From a virus (Duplodnaviria; Caudoviricetes): 64,000 bases of DNA. The number at the start of each line of letters is the position of its first letter. Positions within the stretch are counted from its first letter, which is position 1. The notes beneath the pieces were generated by a model. That model did no database searches and was not told the origin of the DNA. It saw nothing but the letters and a program-made list of their open reading frames with translations. The stretch covers positions 11,649-75,648 of IMG/VR virus record IMGVR_UViG_3300010270_000379. One strand, given 5' to 3'. This document shows, one piece after another, positions 18,088-56,197 of this stretch. Made by a program: the position numbers and the translations under genes.

Positions 18088-18192
18088 AAAAAAAAATAAG
18101 GCAGCCGACTACTAAAAATAAGTAATCGACTGCCCTTTACAGACATATCTATGTATTTACTTTATTATGTTACATAATTATTAAATAATCAA
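18088..18192 (-). promoter_or_regulatory. Late leader L3 (cargo B/A operon)
   Basis: TTGATT-17-CATAAT; ATGTCTGTAAAGGGCAGTCG...CGGCTGCC followed by T-run. Confidence 0.75.
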
Positions 18193-18289
18193 TATTTTTA
18201 TTTTTTACGCTAAATATAACGTTTTTACTTGACTAATTTAATTATTCATACGATAATTTAATTAGTTCGGGATTTCTTAATCCCATCAG

Positions 18290-35856: not shown

Positions 35857-36294
35857 TTAAAATGGAATATCTTCCGGGAATCCCTCACCATCTGCAGCCG
35901 GTGTAGATGCTGTATTATCAGCCGGCTTAAATGTTGGAGCCGTATTACCTGAGCCAACATCTTTTTTTGATAATAATTCTACAGAATCAGCAATTAAAGA
36001 AAGTTTACTGTAATTTTTATCGTCTTTAGTCCAACGATCCTGTTTGATATATCCGGTAACACATACTTTTATTCCTTTTTTCAACAGATTCTTCATGTTA
36101 TCAGCAAGTTTTCCAAAACAAGTAAAATCCAAGTATGAGACTTCATCTATCCATTCATCACCGCTTTTTTTTGAACGGTTCACAGCAATCGAAAAATTCA
36201 ATCTACCGTTATTGTTTGATAAAACAGCATAATCATTATCAGAAATATCTCTTACAACATTTCCAATTTCAACAAAAAAGTTAGTATTAGTCAT
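35857..36294 (-). CDS. ssb: Single-stranded DNA-binding protein
   Basis: OB-fold motifs, VTGYIKQDRW, acidic tail EDIPF. Confidence 0.9.
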   Translation of the reverse strand: MTNTNFFVEIGNVVRDISDNDYAVLSNNNGRLNFSIAVNRSKKSGDEWIDEVSYLDFTCFGKLADNMKNLLKKGIKVCVTGYIKQDRWTKDDKNYSKLSLIADSVELLSKKDVGSGNTAPTFKPADNTASTPAADGEGFPEDIPF

Positions 36295-37061
36295 TTTTTT
36301 CCTCCTGACATTTTACGGTTCAAAGTTGTAAGCGGAATATTTAAAATCCTACTCAACTCTGTAATACATATTTTTTTCCCCTTAAAATATACATAAGTAT
36401 TGGAACTTCTGTTTTGTGCCTGTTCCTTCGGTGTAGCCCATCTACAATTTTCTGGATAGTAACCTTTGTTATTATCAATTCTGTCAATACTTAATCTATC
36501 ATTATATCCACTATTCAAAGCCCATTTTTGAAATTTTTCAAAATCTAGCCAATCATTACAAATTTTAATTCCTCTTGCACCATATCTTTTATATCGTGCC
36601 GACTTAGGATTTAAGCATCTAGCTTTCATTCCTTCCCAAATAATAAATATACGTGTTTTTGTTTTTCCATGTTTAGTGTTTGCTTTTTTACACATTTCTT
36701 TTTGATAGCAACCACATGATTTTGTACCATTTTTTCTTGTTAAATTATTTCCTAAAACAATTGTTGAATTTCCACAATCACATTTACAATTCCAATAAAT
36801 TCTATTTCCTTCTTTTCTGTTCAATGAAATTACAGTTAACAAACCGTATTTTTGACCTGATAAATCAGTAAATCGAATTTTGTTTTTCTCACATCCGCAA
36901 GATTTTTGAATGTTACTTAAAACATGATCACATCTAATAGTTTTTTCTATACCACAATCACAGCGGCATAGAAAATAACTATTTTTTTTGCCTTTCTGAA
37001 ATCCAATGATTAAGAGTTTATTATATTTTTCTCCTACATGAGATTCATAAGGTATTCTCAT
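36291..37061 (-). CDS. HNH homing endonuclease with CxC repeats
   Basis: CKCDCG, KSCGC, RYGARGI, SIDRIDNNKGY.PENCRWAT. Confidence 0.85.
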   Translation of the reverse strand: MRIPYESHVGEKYNKLLIIGFQKGKKNSYFLCRCDCGIEKTIRCDHVLSNIQKSCGCEKNKIRFTDLSGQKYGLLTVISLNRKEGNRIYWNCKCDCGNSTIVLGNNLTRKNGTKSCGCYQKEMCKKANTKHGKTKTRIFIIWEGMKARCLNPKSARYKRYGARGIKICNDWLDFEKFQKWALNSGYNDRLSIDRIDNNKGYYPENCRWATPKEQAQNRSSNTYVYFKGKKICITELSRILNIPLTTLNRKMSGGKK

Positions 37062-37941: not shown

Positions 37942-38868
37942 TTAGAATGGTATATCTGATTCATTTACATTTTCAGTAAATCTATCACTTTCAGCTTTAC
38001 CAATATTTTTTGAATCGTACCAATTAGATTTATTTGACTGCTGCTGATTATTTTGAACTGAGCCATTGATTAAACGGTTGATTACATTACCTGAAAGAAT
38101 CAAATCAAAAGCATAACCATTATTAATTACAAAATTATCGTATGCAGCTTTTTTAACAGCATTTTTGATAACTTCAACCGGAATATTATTATCAAATAAA
38201 CCTTTTTCAAGCCTTCGAATTTTTTTCCAGGTTTCACTTGTTATTAAAGGATCTGGTGTATTAACTTTTTTCTGAGAATATAAAGAATCCCATAATTCTA
38301 TATATGCTTTTTCAACACATTCAAAATTGTTTTCAGGTTCTCTATTTCTTAAAGATTCTTTTTTATTTTTTGTAGTTTTTTTCTTTTCAGGTTTATTTAA
38401 ATCTGAATTTAAATCTGAATTTGAATTTAAATTTGAATTTAAATAGTGGGAAGGGTATGTATAGGGTATACATAGGGTATCAAAAGTTCCCTTAATATCA
38501 AATTGATAGCCTATTTCTTCAAGATAACATAATAAATCATCTGGTAACTTGCATAAAATAGCTGCAATTCCTTTAATTACGTTATCACTTTTTAATTGCT
38601 GATGCTTAGGAAAATTACGGATAATAATAAAATTATTGTATCTGTAAACCTTTTTAGCATCTTCAAATTTTCTTAAAATATGAGTTACAGTATCAGAATT
38701 AAAGCCTGTATCAAAGCATATTCTTTTTACAGTAAGCTCCATAACTCCGGCAATATTTGTAAGCGGATTTGTTAGCAAATAGATATATAACAGTTTTTCT
38801 GATGGATCCAATTCCTGAACCCATGAATCATCCCAAAATGATGTATCAATATAACGTTGTGTACTCAT
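37942..38868 (-). CDS. Phage replication initiator
   Basis: wHTH N-terminus (DPSEKLLYIYLLTNP), linker with DNA repeats, directly upstream of loader. Confidence 0.75.
   Translation of the reverse strand: MSTQRYIDTSFWDDSWVQELDPSEKLLYIYLLTNPLTNIAGVMELTVKRICFDTGFNSDTVTHILRKFEDAKKVYRYNNFIIIRNFPKHQQLKSDNVIKGIAAILCKLPDDLLCYLEEIGYQFDIKGTFDTLCIPYTYPSHYLNSNLNSNSDLNSDLNKPEKKKTTKNKKESLRNREPENNFECVEKAYIELWDSLYSQKKVNTPDPLITSETWKKIRRLEKGLFDNNIPVEVIKNAVKKAAYDNFVINNGYAFDLILSGNVINRLINGSVQNNQQQSNKSNWYDSKNIGKAESDRFTENVNESDIPF
38396..38480. repeat. Probable origin iterons plus AT-rich repeats inside the initiator gene
   Basis: AGGGTAT at 38452, 38463 and 38474 (11-bp phase); TGAATTT(AAAT) repeats at 38403-38444. 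Confidence 0.6.
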
Positions 38869-38871
38869 AAA

Positions 38872-39042
38872 TTATTTTTCCTCTCCGTTTTTGTCTAATT
38901 CATTTTTTAACTTGTTTAATTCTGCCGTTACGAGGCTTATCATTTCCGGTGTAAGTGATATAAAATTGTCTACACCGTTACTTTCCTGATGCATAGCAAT
39001 TTCATTGCCATTGATAACAATATCAATCTGCTTAAAATGCAT
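38872..39042 (-). CDS. 56-aa hypothetical protein
   Basis: AGGAG RBS; MHFKQIDIVING... Confidence 0.55.
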   Translation of the reverse strand: MHFKQIDIVINGNEIAMHQESNGVDNFISLTPEMISLVTAELNKLKNELDKNGEEK

Positions 39043-39055
39043 AGTTTTTTCTCCT

Positions 39056-39152
39056 AAAAAAAGAAAGCCCTCTAAGCCTGATAGTTCTTAGAGGGCCACA
39101 AAGTTCTTGTTGCCAAAAACCTTTAAGTAATCTATCAGGACCTTACTTAAAG
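39056..39152 (-). ncRNA. Structured leader RNA K1: hairpin + terminator with complementary loops
   Basis: 10-bp stems 39121-30/39143-52 and 39067-76/39087-96; loops CCTGATAG and CTATCAGG. Confidence 0.65.
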
Positions 39153-39161
39153 ATTCTTTTA

Positions 39162-39211
39162 AACGTTTTAATGCACGTTCGCAATTTCTTTTAAACGTGC
39201 TTTTAAACGGT
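39162..39211. promoter_or_regulatory. Two type-2 operators upstream of the replication module
   Basis: AACGTT-N6-CACGTT (39162) and AACGTG-CTTTTA-AACGGT (39194) match the 56073-56152 sites. Confidence 0.65.
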
Positions 39212-39234
39212 GTTATATAAAAAAAATACACCCA

Positions 39235-39633
39235 TTACGCTTGTTTGTCAAGAATTTCTTCCCATTTTTGAAAAGTATTATTCCATCTGGCCGGCACTAA
39301 GCAGCCTTTTTCTTTACTCCAGACTTTACCAGGCTCTTTAGGTGGTTCTGTATATCTTGTTCCATCAGATCTAGCACAATAATACATTCTAAATGTTTCA
39401 GCCGTAATATTTGCAGCACCACATTTAATACATTCATAATGTGAATCAAAATATTCAACATAGGATCCATCATTTTGTTTTACAGCCTCAGCAGTTTTTA
39501 CAAATTTTAAGGGCCTTAATTTCTCTTTCCAATTAATCCCTTCCTGTTCCATTTGTTTTACACAATACGGACAAAACTCATATTTTGTTTTACCTTCCAG
39601 GTATTTATGTGAAATTTCACGTTTATTTGACAT
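39235..39633 (-). CDS. Zn-finger hypothetical protein
   Basis: CPYC...CIKC. Confidence 0.6.
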   Translation of the reverse strand: MSNKREISHKYLEGKTKYEFCPYCVKQMEQEGINWKEKLRPLKFVKTAEAVKQNDGSYVEYFDSHYECIKCGAANITAETFRMYYCARSDGTRYTEPPKEPGKVWSKEKGCLVPARWNNTFQKWEEILDKQA

Positions 39634-39943
39634 TTGAATCTCTCCTATATACTATTTTTGTTATTTTTTTGTTATCATTTTGTTTTTGTTTGTTATTCCA
39701 CCTATTCCGCATACCCTTTTTACCGGCCTTACTTCTGAGTTCTGAGAGTATTTCTTCTTCTTTTTCAAGTTCTATAACACGTTGAAATTGCGTAAAGATA
39801 GTCATAGCTTTATTTGATAACTTTTCTGGTAATTTACCGGTGTCAGCATAAGCGGCTAAAGCATTTACTAATTTCTTAAACTGAAAAGGATTTAATTTAT
39901 TCATCTTTTCCAGATAACCTACATAAAAATTAAACTTATCCAT
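39623..39943 (-). CDS. DUF6291-like protein
   Basis: F.FY..YLE...L...L..YA..G..P...RSKAGKKG..NRW. Confidence 0.55.
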   Translation of the reverse strand: MDKFNFYVGYLEKMNKLNPFQFKKLVNALAAYADTGKLPEKLSNKAMTIFTQFQRVIELEKEEEILSELRSKAGKKGMRNRWNNKQKQNDNKKITKIVYRRDSNVK

Positions 39944-40211
39944 TTTTCTTTTTCCTCCTGGTTTCTGCATGGTGTTTAGCATCATATTTTAAATGACACG
40001 GCGCACAATAAGCCTGTAAATTATCCTCAGCACAATTCATTGGATCATGGTCCTTATGTGATACGGTTAAAGTTCTTTTATGTGTATCAAAAGGTTCCCC
40101 AGGTTTACGGCATTGTTTACCGCATTTTTCACACTTCCAACCTACACTTTCCTTTTTATTAAAAGCTATTTGCTTCCAATCTGGCGGATAATTTTTCCAA
40201 TTTACCGGCAT
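39936..40211 (-). CDS. HNH endonuclease-like protein
   Basis: CEKCG...LTVSHKDHDP.N...NL...C..CH. Confidence 0.75.
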   Translation of the reverse strand: MPVNWKNYPPDWKQIAFNKKESVGWKCEKCGKQCRKPGEPFDTHKRTLTVSHKDHDPMNCAEDNLQAYCAPCHLKYDAKHHAETRRKKKNG

Positions 40212-40215
40212 ATTT

Positions 40216-40596
40216 TTATACCTCCTTTACATCTGATAAATGTAAAGCAAATACAAGTTTACCCTCGATATGTAAATCAGTATTTTCACCTGAAACAGCT
40301 TCAATTCTTTTTATTTTCGCTGTCATTTTTGTATTTGTATATCCAAGTCTTAAAATACAAGGAATACAGCAATTTATACCTTCACAGGCAGATTCAATAA
40401 AACCACTCCAAGCATAAAGAGCATCATCCGAATTATCATTAATCCATTGCGCTAATTCATCATCAGATGAAACACTATTACAATAAGCATTTACAAGCCT
40501 ACTTTTCCAATAATCTGTAGTACGTCTGTATTCAATAGTCTTTTCACCAGACTTAATTTTTTCATACCATTGTTTCTTTAATGGAAATATCAGCAT
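40216..40596 (-). CDS. ASCH/PUA-like domain protein
   Basis: LKKQWYEKIKSGEKTIEYR. Confidence 0.75.
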   Translation of the reverse strand: MLIFPLKKQWYEKIKSGEKTIEYRRTTDYWKSRLVNAYCNSVSSDDELAQWINDNSDDALYAWSGFIESACEGINCCIPCILRLGYTNTKMTAKIKRIEAVSGENTDLHIEGKLVFALHLSDVKEV

Positions 40597-40748
40597 TATT
40601 TACACTCCTTTTCTATGAATCTTCGTATAATCTGCCCTAAAATACAGATAGCAAATATAACTAACATTCTTTCAGAACCTTTATCAATTATTGGAGCAAT
40701 AGCACCGCAAATTAAACCAATTATAAATCCTAAGTTATATATCATCAT
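40596..40748 (-). CDS. 50-aa two-TM membrane protein
   Basis: Translated by hand; TAATG overlap with next gene. Confidence 0.5.
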   Translation of the reverse strand: MMIYNLGFIIGLICGAIAPIIDKGSERMLVIFAICILGQIIRRFIEKECK

Positions 40749-41011
40749 TCAACTCCTATAAATGGACTTTCAATTGTTCCAAGAGGTTTTAATTTAGATT
40801 TTGGTGAATCAAATTCTTTTTTCTCTAAAAAATAAATCCGATGCTGTTCTAAATTAACAAACCTTTCAAGTTTATCTTGAATCTTTAATATTCTTTCTCT
40901 TTCTGCAGCGTTCTGAGCTTGTACTTCTATATCCTGTACGTCAAAATCACATAGTAAATAACAATTAATTGCAGATAGTAAATCTCTGGCCTCTTGTTCT
41001 GTAATTTTCAT
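40745..41011 (-). CDS. Hypothetical protein
   Basis: In-operon ORF. Confidence 0.55.
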   Translation of the reverse strand: MKITEQEARDLLSAINCYLLCDFDVQDIEVQAQNAAERERILKIQDKLERFVNLEQHRIYFLEKKEFDSPKSKLKPLGTIESPFIGVE

Positions 41012-41284
41012 TTATTCCACATCCCTTAGAAACTTTTCAGTCATTGCAATATTCTCATTAAGTTTTGGAACATCTTCATGTACTAACGCTTTCAATGCTC
41101 TACAGTGTTTTAATAATTCTTTTATTATAAATAATGCTTCTTCCTGTTGTTCTTCTGTAATAAGTTCTTTCCAATTTCTACGTTGAAAAGGTAATCCACA
41201 AGTTTTACACATCTTCAAACTTTTTGGATCTGTTTTATTACCGAATTTACAGTTATAACAACGTTGTTTTTTGAAAATAGCCAT
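41012..41284 (-). CDS. Hypothetical protein (Cys cluster)
   Basis: CYNCK...CKTC. Confidence 0.55.
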   Translation of the reverse strand: MAIFKKQRCYNCKFGNKTDPKSLKMCKTCGLPFQRRNWKELITEEQQEEALFIIKELLKHCRALKALVHEDVPKLNENIAMTEKFLRDVE

Positions 41285-41586
41285 TATTCCTCCTGATCTT
41301 CATTGTAATACTGTATTTTTACATCTGGATAACATGGCATTTTTTTTCCACAACCAATATAAGTACCAAAAATATTTATAAAAACATGTATTTGAAATTC
41401 CACATATCCGTTTTCATCATAATTAATTTTTGGCAATGGTAAGCCGTATTTTGTAAAACTTGCCTGATATATTTTGATTCCATAATCAGTTAATCTGACT
41501 TTTATGTAATGATTAAGATTAGTTTTTATCCAACATCTTTTTTTTGAAAAAGGTAAAGTATATTCTTTATCTGCCTTTTCAGCCAT
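41284..41586 (-). CDS. Hypothetical protein
   Basis: In-operon ORF. Confidence 0.55.
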   Translation of the reverse strand: MAEKADKEYTLPFSKKRCWIKTNLNHYIKVRLTDYGIKIYQASFTKYGLPLPKINYDENGYVEFQIHVFINIFGTYIGCGKKMPCYPDVKIQYYNEDQEE

Positions 41587-41588
41587 AA

Positions 41589-42476
41589 TTATTCCCCCTG
41601 AGCTGCTAAAGCCATTGCAGCAAGGCTATCAGTTGAATCTATATCTTCAATGGCATTATCCATATCAGCCATTGAGATAATTCCAATTTCATTATTCCTT
41701 TGTACAAGCTCATTACACTTTCTATAGGCCATTTCTACCCTTCCCCTTAAATGCGGATAAACTTCAAAGAATTCTTCCCAGGTTTTACACTGTTGATGAA
41801 AAAAGTTATGTTCATCTGGTGTAAGAGCTAAGATATTCCAGGCCTTTTCAATTGCAGCCGGACAAGCACCGCGACTAACAATATGATGAAAATGTACAGG
41901 TGTACGGCCTGATGCTTCTGAATAAACTAGATATTCTCTTATTTCTGAAATAGTTCTATCATCGTTTACGTCATGTTCCTGTTTACCGCGCCAAATTTCC
42001 CATTCATATAACACACTTCTTACATCGGCCTGTAAGTCATTAGGAAGGTTACACATTGTTGTAACGTGAAAAAGTAAACCATCTATTAAATGCGAACCGG
42101 CCATTGTATTAGCTTCTGAAATATGAATTGATCTTAGTTCACCGGTATATCTGTTAGGAATTTTATCAGCATAAAGGCCTAATAAGTCTAAATAAAGGCT
42201 ATATTTTTCTTCTTCCGTAGGTTTTCGGTGATTCTCAGAATCAGACTGAAAAATCACCGTTACCAACTTAAATACAGCCCTTAATTGCTTAAAGGTTCTT
42301 TTTTGAAAAGCTGCATCTATCTCACATTCAAGTAAAATCTCTTTTTCAGTTCTCTTTTCACGTTCTGATTTTGACTTGAATAACTTTCTTAGAGTTATTA
42401 AATCTTGTTCATCCGTAACTTTGAGAACTACTTTATCTTGAATAAGGCATCCATGAAAGAAAGAACAGATTTTCAC
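41589..42476 (-). CDS. HNHc-like nuclease of the recombination module
   Basis: HFHHIVSRG...NILALTPDEHNFFH; follows recT. Confidence 0.6.
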   Translation of the reverse strand: MKICSFFHGCLIQDKVVLKVTDEQDLITLRKLFKSKSEREKRTEKEILLECEIDAAFQKRTFKQLRAVFKLVTVIFQSDSENHRKPTEEEKYSLYLDLLGLYADKIPNRYTGELRSIHISEANTMAGSHLIDGLLFHVTTMCNLPNDLQADVRSVLYEWEIWRGKQEHDVNDDRTISEIREYLVYSEASGRTPVHFHHIVSRGACPAAIEKAWNILALTPDEHNFFHQQCKTWEEFFEVYPHLRGRVEMAYRKCNELVQRNNEIGIISMADMDNAIEDIDSTDSLAAMALAAQGE

Positions 42477-42486
42477 GTTTTACCCC

Positions 42487-43467
42487 TTAGAAAATATCCT
42501 GAACACTTCCAGGAGCATTTTCAAAGGCAGCATCAGCGGCAGCCATTTCTTCATCTGTCATACCGTTCATTTCATCAAAAGATGGCTGAATAGGTTCTTT
42601 TGTTTCAGGTTTTCCAACATTTACTTTTTCAGCCATTTTTTTTGGAGCTTCGGCCCAATTTGTTTTATCTTCAATAGCCGGAGTTTCTACAGTTTCAGCC
42701 GAATCATCTGATACAGTGTATTCAAAATCTTCTGTAACATCTTTCAAATCTGCTCTTTCGTCTCTAATTACGGCATCCATAGCCTCAATAGAGATAGGAC
42801 AAAGTTTAAGCGCCTGGATAACAACAGTTTTCAAAGCCATTGCATCAAAATTCTTGTTCCAGATGTTACTTGAATCTTTTGGATCATAGGCCTTAGAAAA
42901 TTTATTACGGTGATTTTCAACATCTTTTTTAGACATTACCTTGAACTGTGAACCACCGTTACAAAGTTCTACAAGGCAGTAATAGCCGATCACTTCACCA
43001 CGTTCTTTCATAATGTCAATTTTATGACTAAGTTTACGGCCCATACCAAGTTCAACTTCAAAAATATCATTTTCGTGTATAGGTTCTGCAGCAATTGTCT
43101 TAATTGTATTAGAACGTCTTGCCAATGCTATGAGGCCTTTATATCCAAGCTGTAAATGCGCTGTCATAACACCTTTTTCGTTGTACGGAATAAGATAGGC
43201 CTGGCCTAACATACCGTTTAATTCAAGGCCATAGGCAGCAGCTTCCTTCAATGCACGAAAAATAGATTCTTTAGAACATTTCACAAGATTAGGCATCTTA
43301 GGATTAGTAATAGCCAAAATTGCAGACTGCATAAAACGATCTACGTTTACGGTATTAGCCGGTAAAGCCTGTAAGAATGAACCTTTTTTATCATTCAACC
43401 ATTCTCCCAAAGTTCCCTTCTTTTCGGTTGTAGGAACCTGATTAGCATTTGAGCCATTTGTTTTCAT
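42487..43467 (-). CDS. recT: RecT family single-strand annealing protein
   Basis: LGQAYLIPY, QLGYKGLIALARRS, W..NFDAMALKTV. Confidence 0.92.
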   Translation of the reverse strand: MKTNGSNANQVPTTEKKGTLGEWLNDKKGSFLQALPANTVNVDRFMQSAILAITNPKMPNLVKCSKESIFRALKEAAAYGLELNGMLGQAYLIPYNEKGVMTAHLQLGYKGLIALARRSNTIKTIAAEPIHENDIFEVELGMGRKLSHKIDIMKERGEVIGYYCLVELCNGGSQFKVMSKKDVENHRNKFSKAYDPKDSSNIWNKNFDAMALKTVVIQALKLCPISIEAMDAVIRDERADLKDVTEDFEYTVSDDSAETVETPAIEDKTNWAEAPKKMAEKVNVGKPETKEPIQPSFDEMNGMTDEEMAAADAAFENAPGSVQDIF

Positions 43468-43504
43468 AGTGTTTTTCTCCTTATATTTACTTTTATACCC
43501 TAAG

Positions 43505-43524
43505 TGTATATATTTTGTTTACAC
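43505..43524. promoter_or_regulatory. Operator type 3 copy upstream of recT
   Basis: TGTATATATTTTGTTTACAC within a CCCTAAGTGTA/TACACCTAGGG repeat; overlaps TAAACA-18-TATAAA. Confidence 0.65.
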
Positions 43525-43538
43525 CTAGGGCAAAAAAA

Positions 43539-44549
43539 TTAATCTATTTTTTTTTCAGAAATTCTAAGAATTCTATATGCTGATTCTTTTTTATAATCAT
43601 CAAACAAGCCTGATTTTTTCAAAGCATCTGTATCTACAGAGTATTTTTTCTGCAGATTATATGACAATTTGAAACGTTCACCGGCACCGTTTACCTTTTC
43701 AGCCGTTGCACTATCGCTATGACTTAAAGCTGAAAGTTTAATCAAGATAGAATCATTCAAGGCACTTTCTTTTTGTTTCAAGTCCTTTATCTGCTGCTGA
43801 ACTTCCATTCTCTGAGCAATTAAATCTTCTGTTTCTGTATCAAGTTCAACAGTATCAGCAATGTTAAGGTTAGCTGTATATTCACTTTCGGAATCAATTC
43901 CTAAAGGCTCCGGTGGATTATTAGTCAAAACAAAGTTTTCCCAAAAATCTTTTTCAGCCGGCAAGAGTCTGGAATAGATAAAATCGTCATTACGTCTAAT
44001 AACATAATGTCTCGCCTTTTTTGTATTCATAAAGAAAGCTGTAAGAATAAACCAAGGTAAATTAGTTACGGCCATATAGTGTTGAACCTGGCAATAGTAA
44101 CTATCTGGAATTTCATCCTCACTAAAGCCTTCACCACGGCTAGAAGTCTTAATTTCAAAACCTCCAAGACCTTCTACTGTTTCCCCTCCGATTGTTACCT
44201 GATTTTCAGCATGGCAGAGACCGTCAATATTTGCGTTCATATATGGAATGTCATTAGATGTATACATACCAGGAACACTAATAATCTCTATTCCAAGTTC
44301 TTCTGCAGCTTTTTTTCTGATAGGATCTTCAAGAATATGGCCCCATTCTGTAGCCGCATTTCCCTTAAATCCTTCTACATTCTTTTTAGAAAGATAAATT
44401 GTTAAAGGTGATGCATATTTATTAAGGCCCATAATTGCACCGGCATCACTACCACCAATTCCGGTAGTTCTCATTTCAAGCCATTTTTCCGGTTCTTTAT
44501 CCTGTTCAACAGGTGTAAACTTCGCATTAATAGACAAGTAATCTATCAT
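43539..44549 (-). CDS. YqaJ-like exonuclease
   Basis: W..MR..GIGGSD, WGHILE, ANIDG, EIKT, YYCQVQHYM. Confidence 0.92.
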   Translation of the reverse strand: MIDYLSINAKFTPVEQDKEPEKWLEMRTTGIGGSDAGAIMGLNKYASPLTIYLSKKNVEGFKGNAATEWGHILEDPIRKKAAEELGIEIISVPGMYTSNDIPYMNANIDGLCHAENQVTIGGETVEGLGGFEIKTSSRGEGFSEDEIPDSYYCQVQHYMAVTNLPWFILTAFFMNTKKARHYVIRRNDDFIYSRLLPAEKDFWENFVLTNNPPEPLGIDSESEYTANLNIADTVELDTETEDLIAQRMEVQQQIKDLKQKESALNDSILIKLSALSHSDSATAEKVNGAGERFKLSYNLQKKYSVDTDALKKSGLFDDYKKESAYRILRISEKKID

Positions 44550-44713
44550 TATTCAGCCTCCTTCATTGCTTCTGCAACTGTCATGTTGTCAATTTCATCC
44601 TGGATTTTTTCAGCTTTTTTTACCAAGGAAGCAATTTTATTATTGTCTTTTGTACTGTTTACTTCTTTGATAACATCATCTTTTTCTGCCTTTAATTTTG
44701 CATACTTAGTCAT
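44549..44713 (-). CDS. 54-aa hypothetical protein
   Basis: AGGAG RBS; TAATG overlap with yqaJ. Confidence 0.55.
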   Translation of the reverse strand: MTKYAKLKAEKDDVIKEVNSTKDNNKIASLVKKAEKIQDEIDNMTVAEAMKEAE

Positions 44714-44734
44714 TTTTATATCTCCTATTTATTT

Positions 44735-45490
44735 TTATTCAGCCTTTCCAATTAAAGAAGGCTTCATATTCTTTTCAGCGGCAGCACATAAAGCATTAAT
44801 CTTTTTCTGCTGTTCTGGTGTAAAACCTTTATTACAAAATGCTTTTTCAATTTTCTGCATACCTTTAGGAGTAATGTGAAATTGAACACAAGAAAAATTA
44901 TCTTTTGTATACAGATAATTTTTTACATATCCTAAATCAATTCCTAAAGCTGTAGCCTGATATTTTCCTTTTTTATCTGGATTATCATGTCTTTCGCGCA
45001 TAATATATTTTTTAATTTCAAGGAATTGCAAAATATCATCGCGCTTTATTTTTAAGAGTTTAGCTACATTAGTTGCACTGAATGTACCATCTGATTCTGC
45101 AAAAGCTCTCCACGATTCTGCATCCGGTGTAAGTTCTTCAATCTGTTTATTTTTATTTTCAAGTTGCTGCTGTAATTCAATGGACCGTCTCTGTAAAATA
45201 GCCATTGCATTAGCTATTGTCTGATTTTCTTCTAATTCTGTAGAAACATTATCAATCTGACGATTTGCAAGATTATGATGCTTTTGTATTTCTTGTTTAA
45301 TAAGTGTAGATTGTTTTTCTGTAAAAAGATAACCACCTTGATTATTCTTTTTAACTGAGCCGAGTACACGACCGAGTTTTTTTACTGTAGTTTTTACAGT
45401 AGTTAAACTCACATGTAATACATTTGAAAGTTCCAATGTAGTCATTAACTTTTCAGGAACTTCAACCGATAAAGATAATGAGTTATCCAT
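44735..45490 (-). CDS. Phage antirepressor (ANT/KilAC-like C-terminal domain)
   Basis: PDAESW..F...G.FS...VAKLL...QFHITPKG. Confidence 0.8.
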   Translation of the reverse strand: MDNSLSLSVEVPEKLMTTLELSNVLHVSLTTVKTTVKKLGRVLGSVKKNNQGGYLFTEKQSTLIKQEIQKHHNLANRQIDNVSTELEENQTIANAMAILQRRSIELQQQLENKNKQIEELTPDAESWRAFAESDGTFSATNVAKLLKIKRDDILQFLEIKKYIMRERHDNPDKKGKYQATALGIDLGYVKNYLYTKDNFSCVQFHITPKGMQKIEKAFCNKGFTPEQQKKINALCAAAEKNMKPSLIGKAE

Positions 45491-45549
45491 ACAGATTACT
45501 CCTTGCGATGTAGGTTTAAGTTTCTCAGGCTGTGGCCTACTTCGCTTGT

Positions 45550-45672
45550 AAAAAGAAAGCCCTTAGAAGTTTTCCACCTTGTAGGAGAGATACAAGGTTC
45601 TGCACGGAAAAACCTCTAAGGGCTGTAAAGTTGGCAAGCAACTTAGAAAAGTGCAGATTTTTTCTAAATTGC
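45550..45672 (-). ncRNA. Structured leader RNA K2 upstream of antirepressor
   Basis: Hairpin 45638-50/45660-72 with loop TCTGCAC; terminator 45558-73/45609-24 with internal GTGCAGA. Confidence 0.7.
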
Positions 45673-45700
45673 CTAAACAGATTGACAATCTGTATTAATC

Positions 45701-45796
45701 ACACGTTTTTATGTGATTACTCTTTAATTAATAACACGTTTTCGTGTATTTGTCAATAAAAAATCTCAACATTTTATGTGATTTTTCCGATATAAT
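45701..45796. promoter_or_regulatory. Switch 1: divergent promoters with type-1 operators
   Basis: Minus-strand TTGACA(45756-51)-17-TATTAA; ACACG-TTTT-CGTGT at 45734, related sites at 45701 and 45766; plus-strand TATAAT at 45791. Confidence 0.7.
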
Positions 45797-45802
45797 AGCG
45801 TT

Positions 45803-46081
45803 ATGGATTATACGGAATTCTGGAAACGAACAAATTCTCTTATAAAACTTCTGAATAAAACACAAAGAGGCCTTGCGCTTGAATGTGGTTTTACTGAAAG
45901 AAGGATAGAGACATTATCATCTAATAACAGATCCCCAGATGTAATTGAAGCCGTAAAAATTGCACAAACATTAAATACTACTGTAGAATATCTGGTTACA
46001 GGACAGGATGAAAATGCCGCAGCAAAAGAACTAACAGAATTAAAAGCTAAATTAGCCGATTTAATTATGTTCAAGAAATAG
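45803..46081 (+). CDS. XRE-family HTH repressor 1 (apparently leaderless)
   Basis: TQRGLALECG...IETL...PDVIEAVKIAQTLNTTVEYLVTG. Confidence 0.85.
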   Translation: MDYTEFWKRTNSLIKLLNKTQRGLALECGFTERRIETLSSNNRSPDVIEAVKIAQTLNTTVEYLVTGQDENAAAKELTELKAKLADLIMFKK

Positions 46082-46206
46082 CCTCCTATAAGATTTTTGT
46101 CGTTCGTCATTTATGTCGCGCGACTTTTCCAGAATCTTATAGGAAATATATTGTTTTAATGTAGTTGAATTCGCTTGAATCGTCACTTTAATTGCTTAAA
46201 GCAAAA

Positions 46207-50981: not shown

Positions 50982-51416
50982 TCACTCCCCCCAACAATTA
51001 AGACAATACCATTTTCCGTCTGAAAAAATCATATCTTTTACGTTGTGGTATTTTCCACATTCAGAACATTCTAAAATTAGCAGATTACTGTTTATTTTTT
51101 CAAAATAAAACTTATTATCCCATTCGTGAAAAGTTATCATTCCATATCGTTCTGCAACTTTTACGATGTATATTTTCTTGATACGTTTTATTAATTCACC
51201 AAGAAAAACAGATCTCCAAGTTTCAAGTCTTGTTGCTCGTTTGTAATGGTTACAGATACGGCAAGAAGGATTGTAATTCTCAATACTGTCAGCACCACCT
51301 AACCTTTGCGGAATAATATGGTCTACTTGCATTTCTTTTAATGTAATTTCGTGTCCGCAATAAGCACATCTGCCATTGTATTTCTGATAGACCTGTTCTC
51401 TAATTTGTTTAGTCAT
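50982..51416 (-). CDS. HNH endonuclease
   Basis: CAYCG...QVDHIIP...N.NPSCRICN. Confidence 0.85.
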   Translation of the reverse strand: MTKQIREQVYQKYNGRCAYCGHEITLKEMQVDHIIPQRLGGADSIENYNPSCRICNHYKRATRLETWRSVFLGELIKRIKKIYIVKVAERYGMITFHEWDNKFYFEKINSNLLILECSECGKYHNVKDMIFSDGKWYCLNCWGE

Positions 51417-51418
51417 TT

Positions 51419-51769
51419 CTATTCACTCTCCTTTAGTTCTGGAAGTACAATTTCTTTCCAAGCGTAAGGTTGCATTACTTCTGAATATTCTTGATTAGTC
51501 CAACACCCAAACATTTCTTCATATTTTGCAACGTAGTAATATCCACGATAAGAAACACACAATTTCCAATCTTCATCTTTCGGTAAATCTCCGTCTTTCA
51601 CATAATGCCATTCATTCGCCTTGTTATAACCGAACTCCGCACCTTTTTGATATGCTTCTTTTACATCGCTATATCGATAATTTATTATTCCATCTTCTCC
51701 ATAATCTGAAACATTTATTTTATAATGATAAATACCATCTGCGTGTTTTTCTGCTTCTTTCTCAAACAT
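51419..51769 (-). CDS. DUF551-like protein
   Basis: WHYVKDGDLPK...YAWKEI. Confidence 0.55.
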   Translation of the reverse strand: MFEKEAEKHADGIYHYKINVSDYGEDGIINYRYSDVKEAYQKGAEFGYNKANEWHYVKDGDLPKDEDWKLCVSYRGYYYVAKYEEMFGCWTNQEYSEVMQPYAWKEIVLPELKESE

Positions 51770-52010
51770 TCTCTAACTCCTTTGCCACAAACTCATAACA
51801 TTCTTTTTCTGTTCCTTCAAACAGAACTTTCTCATAGACAGGCTTTGTATCTATAGTGTAATAATGTCCACTCATTTTATATACATAATATTTTTTATCT
51901 TCTGTCATAGTTATTCCTCTACCACCGTAACAATGATAACGAATGTTCTTCGGATTGTAGCATCTATCTTTCATTCTTGAATAGATTGTATTTAATCTGC
52001 AATAAGACAT
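51762..52010 (-). CDS. Chimeric small ORF with an HNH N-terminal remnant
   Basis: YSRMKDRCYNPKNIRY.CYGGRGI followed by an unrelated C-terminus. Confidence 0.5.
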   Translation of the reverse strand: MSYCRLNTIYSRMKDRCYNPKNIRYHCYGGRGITMTEDKKYYVYKMSGHYYTIDTKPVYEKVLFEGTEKECYEFVAKELENV

Positions 52011-55996: not shown

Positions 55997-56068
55997 TGGC
56001 GGATGGTGGAATCGAACCACCGACCACCGGATTATGATTCCGGTGAGCTACCTCTGCTCTAATCCGCT
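55997..56068 (-). tRNA. tRNA with CAT anticodon, initiator-like variant; CCA not encoded
   Basis: AGCGGAT-TA-GAGC-AGAGGTA-GCTC-A-CCGGA-ATCATAA-TCCGG-TGGTC-GGTGG-TTCGATT-CCACC-ATCCGCC-A folds as a complete 72-nt cloverleaf. Confidence 0.9.
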
Positions 56069-56072
56069 AAAT

Positions 56073-56197
56073 ATCGTTTTATTACACGTTTATACAATGT
56101 TATAACGTGTTTTATTACGTTCTAATTCTTTTATAACGTGCTTTTACACGTTTGTCAAGAAAAATATGTAGATTTTTGCACGAATTTATACGATAAT
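56073..56197. promoter_or_regulatory. Switch 2: three type-2 operators with divergent promoters
   Basis: AACGTG-N6-CACGTT sites at 56073, 56104 and 56135 (31-bp period); minus-strand TTGACA-17-TATAAA; plus-strand TAGATT-17-GATAAT. Confidence 0.8.

Follow-up and report, generated by a model that had tools for sequence, protein, structure and literature searches.

Phage P4 CI RNA immunity (seqA/seqB/seqC) and its relatives P1/P7 c4 and N15 CA RNA (Rfam C4 and IsrK families) rest on same-strand RNA-RNA pairing within the untranslated leader of a phage operon, placed before antirepressor genes, as with P1 c4, or replication genes, as with P4 CI, and the pairing words differ between related phages. 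In P4, the outcome is premature termination (PMC4825925, PMC3632133). The original prediction had assigned control of termination to both the P1 C4 and the P4 CI RNAs, which is loose, since c4 blocks translation at the ribosome-binding region of the ant mRNA (PMC12197685) and only P4 CI is described as causing premature termination (PMC4825925). Two early operons of the uncultured prophage analysed here begin with a short folded RNA of comparable genetic position, in which the tip of a first hairpin base-pairs with the loop of the transcription-stop hairpin. However, no sequence or structure match to C4, c4-a1b1 or IsrK was obtained, and no Rfam family matched. Both partners are hairpin loops of one compact unit of about 100-130 nt, one of them lying inside the terminator itself, and, in the absence of expression data, there is no sign of a processed RNA or of separate downstream target boxes. 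The promoters carry operators, so they are probably silent in the lysogen.

The window, i.e. the whole stretch of 64,000 nucleotides that was analysed, was read on the minus strand, which confirmed every element listed in the original prediction of two leader RNAs with complementary loops. K1 (39158-39056, minus strand) and K2 (45692-45549, minus strand) each consist of a sigma-70-like promoter with operators or operator-like repeats, a long A/U-rich hairpin, a 12-18 nt linker and a strong intrinsic terminator, with the hairpin loop (L1) being perfectly complementary to 7-8 nt inside the terminator loop (L2). AACTTT before the terminator and AGGGCTTTCTTTTT at its end are present in both elements. 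The features are as follows.

39223..39251, minus strand: K1 promoter, TTGACA (39251-39246), 17-nt spacer, TATTTT (39228-39223)
39162..39209, minus strand: operator-like repeats (CGTTTAAAAG three times; GCACGTT..AACGTGC) in the transcribed K1 leader
39115..39158, minus strand: K1 hairpin 1, 16-bp stem with a 10-bp core CTTTAAGTAA/TTACTTAAAG (39152-39143 with 39130-39121), extended through AAAGAAT/GGTTTTT, and a 12-nt loop
39132..39139, minus strand: K1 L1, CCTGATAG, almost flush with the 3' arm, with a 3-nt spacer on its 5' side and 1 nt on its 3' side
39097..39114, minus strand: K1 linker (GGCAACAAGAACTTTGTG), A-rich
39056..39096, minus strand: K1 intrinsic terminator, 10-11 bp G+C-rich stem GCCCTCTAAG/CTTAGAGGGC (39096-39067), 10-nt loop, T-tract 39066-39056
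39077..39084, minus strand: K1 L2, CTATCAGG, in the terminator loop and flush with the 3' arm, 8-bp complement of L1
45728..45756, minus strand: K2 promoter, TTGACA (45756-45751), 17-nt spacer, TATTAA (45733-45728), with palindromic operators ACACGAAAACGTGT (45747-45734) and TCACATAAAAACGTGTGA (45716-45699), divergent from the XRE repressor gene 45803-46081 (plus strand)
45678..45692, minus strand: K2 5' hairpin (CAGATT GTC AATCTG)
45638..45672, minus strand: K2 hairpin 1, 13-14 bp stem and a 9-nt loop
45651..45657, minus strand: K2 L1, TCTGCAC, flush with the 3' arm
45549..45624, minus strand: K2 terminator, 18-bp outer stem (45624-45607 with 45575-45558), 8-nt 5' bulge, inner hairpin 45598-45576, T-tract 45557-45549
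45599..45605, minus strand: K2 L2, GTGCAGA, in the 5' bulge directly before the inner hairpin, 7-bp complement of L1
45499..45545, minus strand: third hairpin (closing GCGA/TCGC, 45545-45505) abutting the antirepressor Shine-Dalgarno AAGGAG (45504-45499), ATG at 45490

The hairpins were recovered by folding, with z = -3.05 for K1 and -6.01 for K2 against dinucleotide shuffles; the terminators folded at -17.6 kcal/mol (K1) and -34.0 kcal/mol (K2). As a chance control, a structural scan was performed for a terminator plus an upstream hairpin whose loop is complementary by at least 7 nt to the terminator interior. In the 64-kb window, K1 and K2 were found plus two weak matches with 6-bp hairpin stems, one of them with an A/T-only loop word, while only 1 of 20 shuffled windows gave any hit.

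The K1 promoter scored 10 of 12 in a consensus scan, and TTGACA-17-TAT(A/T)TT is visible at the same place in the relatives L018, L020 and L021 (handles of the form L018 denote related phages). The operator-like stretch contains a 45 nt match at 80% identity to the switch-2 promoter region at 56109-56150 and differs between relatives, each phage having its own inverted repeats. At K2, the 92-aa ORF gave an HTH_3 hit, and the same layout occurs in L076, L078 and L084. K2 precedes a KilAC-domain antirepressor (PF03374, E 1e-12), and K1 precedes a 56-aa ORF, a DnaD/DnaA-like replisome organizer and a DnaC-like loader, in line with the gene context originally given.

Syntenic phages from metagenomes keep the pairing while the letters change, so loop complementarity was not lost in homologues. 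K1 has four loop alleles in 15 sequences and K2-type elements have nine allele pairs; every cell is paired and none has a one-sided change. In the 15 K1 homologues, the loop-loop helix is 100% paired, with 3 of 8 pairs changed on both sides. The 16 pairs of hairpin 1 are also 100% paired with 3 changed on both sides, 5 of 10 terminator stem pairs changed on both sides, and the linker is nearly invariant. The whole K1 structure beats 500 of 500 shuffles and all slid controls. In 6 close K2 homologues, the loop-loop helix is 100% paired, with 4 of 7 pairs changed on both sides. The 5' hairpin (6 pairs, 5 changed on both sides) and hairpin 1 (13 pairs, 9 of them invariant) are 100% paired, and 7 of 18 outer terminator pairs changed on both sides. 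The closing helix of the third hairpin, read by eye and not counted formally, also changes on both sides in relatives (GTGA/TCAC in L077, GCAGA/TCTGC in L076). More distant K2-type elements use entirely different 7-9 nt words that are still perfect complements. Further K2-type alleles are CTTTCCACA, TTCCTACA, TCTGCTC, TTAAGGCC, TGATACC, TTAACCCC and GTTGCGT, each with its exact complement.

That K1 and K2 belong to a family, as originally proposed, is supported by their shared architecture and linker motifs and by further paralogues in relatives. A third paralogue, K3, lies after terL in L018-L021 and L297, and in L020 its kiss has a G.U wobble, which fits RNA pairing rather than a DNA repeat. 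L321 carries GCATGACT/AGTCATGC before a lipoprotein-like gene, and one IMG/VR phage (G001) has four elements, each with its own pair. The proposed orthogonality of the loops is likewise supported. The predicted duplex energies of all 18 loop pairs fall between -7.8 and -11.4 kcal/mol (-10.3 for K1, -9.7 for K2), although length varies from 7 to 9 nt; the cognate duplexes are about -11 kcal/mol, whereas non-cognate loops of the window reach only -0.1 to -2.9. The pairing segment abuts the 3' arm of each loop, with 2-3 spare nt on the 5' side, probably the usual geometry of kissing loops.

Taken together, K1 and K2 are best read as two paralogous members of an uncatalogued family of phage leader RNAs, each transcribed from a repressor-controlled sigma-70-type promoter, in which L1 forms a 7-9 bp Watson-Crick kissing helix with L2 of the same transcript. 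In K1, L2 lies in the apical loop, and in K2, in a 5' bulge followed by an inserted hairpin. L2 is always made before the 3' arm of the terminator, so the kiss can form before RNA polymerase reaches the T-tract, and it is therefore placed to set termination efficiency. In this reading, the default product is a short RNA of about 160-170 nt, and the downstream genes, i.e. antirepressor, exonuclease and RecT after K2 and the replication initiator and loader after K1, are transcribed only by read-through. We favour the kissed fold as the terminating, closed state, which pre-organises the large terminator loop until an unidentified phage or host input that binds or opens it lets polymerase pass. 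Distinct loop words in each copy would keep the several leaders of one phage from mispairing with each other. A probability of roughly 0.55 is assigned to this reading, since regulation of termination, the direction of the effect and the existence of an input are inferred from anatomy (promoter, then terminator, then gene) without expression, 3'-end or termination data, the phage group being uncultured (RecT is below 40% identical to any GenBank phage), and since the steric possibility of the intramolecular kiss was judged only from linker lengths. A promoter followed at once by such a terminator hairpin plus a T-tract makes sense, by inference, only if read-through is controlled or metered, and in relative L039 a Cro-like HTH gene occupies the K2 position. 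On the other hand, both terminators look strong without any help, so a termination-promoting role for the kiss is not needed on energetic grounds, and no antiterminator protein was recognised among about 50 ORFs scanned. Structures close upstream of a terminator can suppress termination (bioRxiv 10.64898/2026.06.17.733018), and the kiss could therefore equally be the read-through state.

A less likely, though possible, alternative is an RNA immunity or timer acting in trans, of the P4 CI / P1 c4 / N15 type, in which the terminated leader or a processed piece of it accumulates and, through L2 (or L1), pairs with the complementary loop of nascent leaders of the same allele and so changes their termination, the loop words then being specificity (heteroimmunity) determinants. 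Apart from the genetic position, which matches the known systems (PMC4825925, PMC3632133), K2 kiss alleles are discrete and uncoupled from their background. The window and L078 differ at 8 of 14 kiss positions but at 0 of 26 hairpin-1 stem positions, and their repressors are 88% identical, whereas L078 and L020 share a kiss allele but differ at 15 of 36 terminator-stem positions. The antirepressor leader, with nine alleles, is also far more diverse than K1 (four alleles at three positions) or K3 (one allele plus a wobble variant). However, both partners sit in the same molecule 50 nt apart, so cis pairing should outcompete trans pairing and leave few free loops, and, given the operators, the RNA is probably not made in a lysogen, unlike c4 and CI. 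No further copy of L1 or L2 at a plausible target was found, the extra 9-mer copies in L019 lying inside coding sequence. Across all six close K2 sequences, the kiss columns are no more variable than the terminator stem (0.57 against 0.72 of columns vary).

It is doubtful that termination is constitutive and that the downstream genes live on a fixed leak. Strong terminators, a 5' hairpin and a U-tail are typical of stable small RNAs, the K1 linker and the hairpin-1 stems are conserved in sequence beyond what pairing alone requires, and two complementary loops in one RNA could also join molecules head to tail, as pRNA probably does. Nevertheless, no complementary target for the conserved linker was found in the phage, and the element always sits between a promoter and the first gene of an operon, whatever that gene is, which points to control of what follows rather than a free-standing RNA gene.

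A classic three-structure attenuator, in which the loop complementarity is only the nucleus of a longer antiterminator helix between the 3' half of hairpin 1 and the 5' half of the terminator, was tested and not supported. In the window itself, the pairing can be extended (K1 duplex -17.0 against -10.3 kcal/mol for the kiss alone, K2 duplex -14.9 against -9.7), but the extension is no better than shuffled arms in most homologues: in K1, 11 of 15 have at least 15 of 200 shuffles as good, and in K2, 4 of 6 are worse than the shuffle mean. In L019, L020 and L087, nothing beyond the loop words is complementary. A DNA-level explanation, with the two words as covarying inverted half-sites for a dimeric DNA-binding protein, is very unlikely, for although inverted repeats in DNA covary in exactly the way RNA pairs do and all but one of the allele pairs are pure Watson-Crick, each half-site sits exactly in the loop of a covarying hairpin, flush with its 3' arm, one allele has a G.U wobble (L020 K3), the allele does not follow the adjacent repressor (repressors 88% and 86% identical go with a different and with the same allele, respectively), and word length varies while the predicted RNA duplex energy stays within a narrow band.

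Further known systems were compared one by one. The lambda PR' - 6S RNA - tR' unit is likewise, in all likelihood, a promoter followed at once by an efficient intrinsic terminator, so that a short RNA is the default product and the operon needs read-through; Q, however, appears to be engaged through DNA and a sigma-dependent pause rather than through a folded RNA, no Q-like protein was found here among the ORFs scanned, and the lambda unit seems to have no loop-loop pairing. In kissing-loop antisense control of transcription attenuation and replication (pT181, pIP501, ColE1 RNA I/II with Rop), loop-loop helices of 6-8 bp probably also decide the fate of a leader before rep genes, with loop words defining specificity groups. 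There, the partner would be a countertranscript from the opposite strand, so complementarity is automatic, while here both loops are on the same strand and must co-evolve; the only antisense promoter-like site (39011-39038, plus strand) lies in non-conserved sequence. The guanidine-II (mini-ykkC) riboswitch probably also has two tandem hairpins whose loops kiss, with the second hairpin tied to the expression platform, but its loops are presumably conserved ACGR tetraloops joined by two ligand-dependent C-G pairs, whereas the loops described here form 7-9 ordinary pairs of free sequence, which need no ligand. Finally, in 'tug-of-war' antitermination (Bushhouse, Fu and Lucks, bioRxiv 10.64898/2026.06.17.733018), tertiary or secondary structure that does not overlap the terminator in sequence can still change termination efficiency. 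That effect needs a very short spacer upstream of the terminator and a ligand-bound aptamer or pseudoknot, while in K1 and K2 the contact is made through the terminator loop, with a 12-18 nt linker.

The window is part of a 75.6-kb IMG/VR provirus record, an integrase gene lies at its right end and nearly all genes are on the minus strand. On that strand both stretches, K1 and K2, were found to read exactly as the original prediction had described them, i.e. as two leaders in which the loop of an upstream hairpin is complementary to the loop of the terminator. The K1 unit and its surroundings comprise the following:

39251-39223 (minus strand): promoter TTGACA-17-TATTTT, followed by about 50 nt of operator-like repeats, which recur at a second repressor switch at 56109-56150
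39158-39115 (minus strand): hairpin with a 10-bp core that extends to 16 bp, its 12-nt loop carrying CCTGATAG, followed by an 18-nt A-rich linker
39096-39067 (minus strand): G+C-rich terminator with a 10-11 bp stem (-17.6 kcal/mol, TTTCTTTTTTT), its 10-nt loop carrying CTATCAGG, then a T-tract
39011-39038 (plus strand): promoter-like site (TTGATA-16-TAAAAT) pointing antisense into K1

Downstream of K1, a Shine-Dalgarno sequence and a 56-aa ORF are followed by a DnaD/DnaA-like replisome organizer and a DnaC-like loader. The plus-strand promoter-like site lies in the 56-aa ORF, i.e. in sequence that relatives do not share, and is probably fortuitous; promoter-like sites were no more frequent than in shuffles (69 found, 76.9 expected).

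K2 starts at a TTGACA-17-TATTAA promoter, which is overlapped by two palindromic operators and is divergent from a 92-aa XRE repressor gene. The transcript has a small 5′ hairpin, then a 13-14 bp hairpin with TCTGCAC in its loop, a 13-nt linker, and a terminator with an 18-bp outer stem (-34.0 kcal/mol, TTTCTTTTT) that encloses an 8-nt bulge with GTGCAGA and an inner hairpin. A third hairpin abuts the ribosome-binding site of a KilAC antirepressor gene, which is followed by YqaJ-type exonuclease and RecT genes. Further features of the early region are:

45499-45545 (minus strand): third hairpin, conserved between the K2 terminator and the antirepressor start, whose closing helix (GCGA/TCGC) changes on both sides in relatives and whose 3′ arm ends directly at the Shine-Dalgarno AAGGAG
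55997-56068 (minus strand), with promoter and operators at 56100-56160: tRNA(CAU), the start of the operon of the second repressor switch, about 60 nt after an operator-covered TTGACA promoter
36291-37061, 39936-40211, 50982-51416 and 51762-52010 (minus strand): four scattered HNH-endonuclease-like ORFs, of which the last looks like a fragment

The third hairpin may control translation or stabilise the read-through mRNA. The tRNA(CAU) holds the position that K2 holds at the first switch, and the same tRNA-first layout occurs in the relatives L076 and L077.

Both folds were well below shuffled controls (z = -3.05 for K1 and -6.01 for K2). To assess chance occurrence, a purpose-written scan was performed for a terminator plus an upstream hairpin whose loop is complementary by at least 7 nt to the terminator interior. 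In the window it returned K1 and K2, each with a 16-bp hairpin stem, as well as two weak matches with 6-bp hairpin stems, one of them with an A/T-only loop word. One of 20 shuffled windows gave any hit.

GenBank phages gave no DNA match in near or distant mode, and the closest cultured RecT is below 40% identical. The host is unknown, with only a weak hint of Bacillota from RecT look-alikes. Protein searches found many relatives of the replisome organizer and the antirepressor in metagenome assemblies, the encoding contigs being syntenic with the window, and one metagenome motif scan added more K1 copies. In exact-motif scans, the K1 linker gave 16 chance hits and no element in genome contigs, and a terminator-frame pattern and an RBS-frame pattern gave only chance hits in viral contigs. 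Looser frame patterns gave 229 matches, of which only three are real elements, namely L297, L321 and L139, the last being again G001, a more distant IMG/VR phage of 73.6 kb.

In the K1 alignment of 15 distinct sequences, the loop-loop helix is paired in every sequence and exists as four alleles, CCTGATAG, CCTGTTAG, CCTGTTAC and CCTGAAAG, each with its exact complement. Three of the eight pairs are changed on both sides and none on one side only; hairpin 1 and the terminator stem covary as well, and the structure exceeded all 500 column shuffles and all slid controls. In the K2 alignment of six close relatives, four of seven loop-loop pairs are changed on both sides, all cells are paired, and the terminator stem covaries. 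More distant K2-type leaders use unrelated words that are again perfect complements (CTTTCCACA, TTCCTACA, TTAAGGCC, TGATACC, TTAACCCC and GTTGCGT). Since several alignments rest on closely related sequences, cell counts overstate the number of independent events, and the number of distinct alleles, 18 different complementary pairs in all, is the more honest measure. Complementarity between the two loops is thus kept through changes on both sides in homologues.

Application of the same scan to the loci of relatives revealed a third paralogue, K3, after the large terminase gene (terL), at the following positions:

L018:15115-15197
L019:17256-17347
L020, about 18140-18240
L021:13525-13618
L297:807-899

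K3 has its own TTGACA promoter and operators, the K1-like stem frame, an extra GNRA hairpin in the linker and the pair GTACGAC/GTCGTAC; in L020 the K3 loop-loop helix contains a G.U wobble. The window itself has only K1 and K2, and a plain terminator is present at the place that might correspond to K3 (about 18136-18098). In L321 (1180-1340), a promoter, operators and a K1/K3-type leader with GCATGACT/AGTCATGC precede a gene whose product starts with a lipoprotein-type signal (MKKITFVLSTVFVLALTGC), and the cassette therefore also heads moron-like accessory genes. G001 carries four elements with four different pairs. In the relative L039 (4690-5225), a canonical divergent repressor/Cro-like pair is present: a 103-aa Cro-like HTH ORF lies where K2 sits in the window, and only a plain hairpin precedes the antirepressor gene.

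The complementary segment abuts the 3′ arm of its loop in each case (0-1 nt), with 2-3 spare nucleotides on the 5′ side, which would correspond to the arrangement of kissing complexes. In K2-type elements the terminator-side segment (L2) runs straight into the inner hairpin, and K2 is therefore K1 with a hairpin inserted at the 3′ end of the terminator loop. The predicted duplex energies of the 18 alleles lie between -7.8 and -11.4 kcal/mol, the A/U-rich words being the longer ones, as if strength were held constant, whereas the non-cognate loop pairs of the window reach only -0.1 to -2.9 kcal/mol. K2 alleles are discrete and uncoupled from their background. The window and L078, a relative, differ at 8 of 14 loop-loop positions but at 0 of 26 hairpin-1 stem positions, their repressors are 88% identical and their operators are of the same type, while L078 and L020 share an allele although their terminator stems differ at 15 of 36 positions. 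Taken over all six sequences, however, the loop-loop columns are not more variable than the terminator stem (0.57 against 0.72), and diversifying selection is therefore suggested, not shown.

A repressor-controlled promoter followed within about 160-170 nt by a very stable predicted terminator, before the first gene of an operon, suggests that read-through is metered or regulated. L2 is always transcribed before the 3′ arm of the terminator, with a lead of about 10 nt in K1 and about 40 nt in K2, and an intramolecular kiss can therefore form before the termination decision. On this comparative evidence, without transcript data, we favour a cis kissing-loop pseudoknot that belongs to the terminating fold, with an unidentified input allowing passage. 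The direction of the effect is uncertain, as the hairpins look strong enough without help and structures adjacent to terminators have been shown to suppress termination as well (10.64898/2026.06.17.733018). Among about 50 ORFs scanned, no antiterminator or RNA-binding protein was recognisable. The presence of different words in the several leaders of one phage is most simply explained as avoidance of mispairing between them.

The main rival is trans action in the manner of the P4 CI, P1/P7 c4 and N15 CA RNAs (PMC4825925, PMC3632133, PMC12197685). The genetic positions and the allele diversity of the antirepressor leader speak for it, whereas the cis partner is only 50 nt away, the promoters carry operators and no other targets were found. 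Only one partner exists for each loop, inside the same unit, and counts of further copies were near expectation; one 8-mer in L038 and two extra exact copies of the 9-mer TGTGGAAAG, the K2 L2 word of L019 (L019:14050 and L019:20491, about 0.1 per strand expected), lie inside coding sequence without hairpin context, the latter two probably by chance or through a codon effect. Nor was a site complementary to the conserved linker found that would make it a seed for a phage target. A further reading, unlikely but of considerable interest if true, is an addressable RNA code, in which every operon head carries its own orthogonal kissing pair locked into its promoter-proximal terminator and the terminated leaders act in trans, allele-specifically, on nascent leaders of the same address. 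This would give operon-by-operon RNA feedback and, for the antirepressor leader, heteroimmunity between related phages, as an independently evolved, generalised counterpart of P4/P1 RNA immunity, and it might also be read by a structure-specific, Rop-like protein that recognises all the kisses regardless of sequence.

A classic attenuator with a mutually exclusive antiterminator was not supported, as extension of the loop pairing into the stems was no better than shuffled arms in most homologues, and there is no conserved helix that sequesters the 5′ arm of the terminator. The reading of the two words as DNA half-sites was rejected on the G.U wobble, the loop placement and the lack of linkage to the adjacent repressor.

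If the kiss gates termination, the element would be a compact and modular way for a phage to control each transcription unit, using a promoter-proximal terminator whose state is set by a programmable 7-9 bp RNA address. It would add a new class to phage leader RNAs, beside nut, put, qut and the c4/CI immunity RNAs, would explain how phages without a recognisable Cro or antiterminator order their early genes, and would offer natural sets of orthogonal terminator switches for engineering.

For comparison with known families, the window was searched against Rfam 15 using cmscan at gathering thresholds, which returned only a tRNA. Region 38800-46200, searched at E values up to 10, listed no C4, c4-a1b1 or IsrK, the best K1 hit being PyrR at E 4.1, and four homologous loci gave no match either. 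In full-text literature searches, no description of a hairpin loop pairing with a terminator loop in a phage leader was found. The element, which would work like a phage leader RNA switch, resembles the c4/CI systems in position and logic, lying on the same strand in the leader of an antirepressor operon (K2) or a replication operon (K1), but differs from them in having no match to the family models and no separate target boxes upstream and downstream (a1b1/a2b2; seqA/seqC). It also resembles the PR′-6S-tR′ unit of lambda in being a promoter-proximal terminator, and plasmid countertranscript attenuators in using kissing loops, and it differs from the plasmid systems in that both loops are on one strand.
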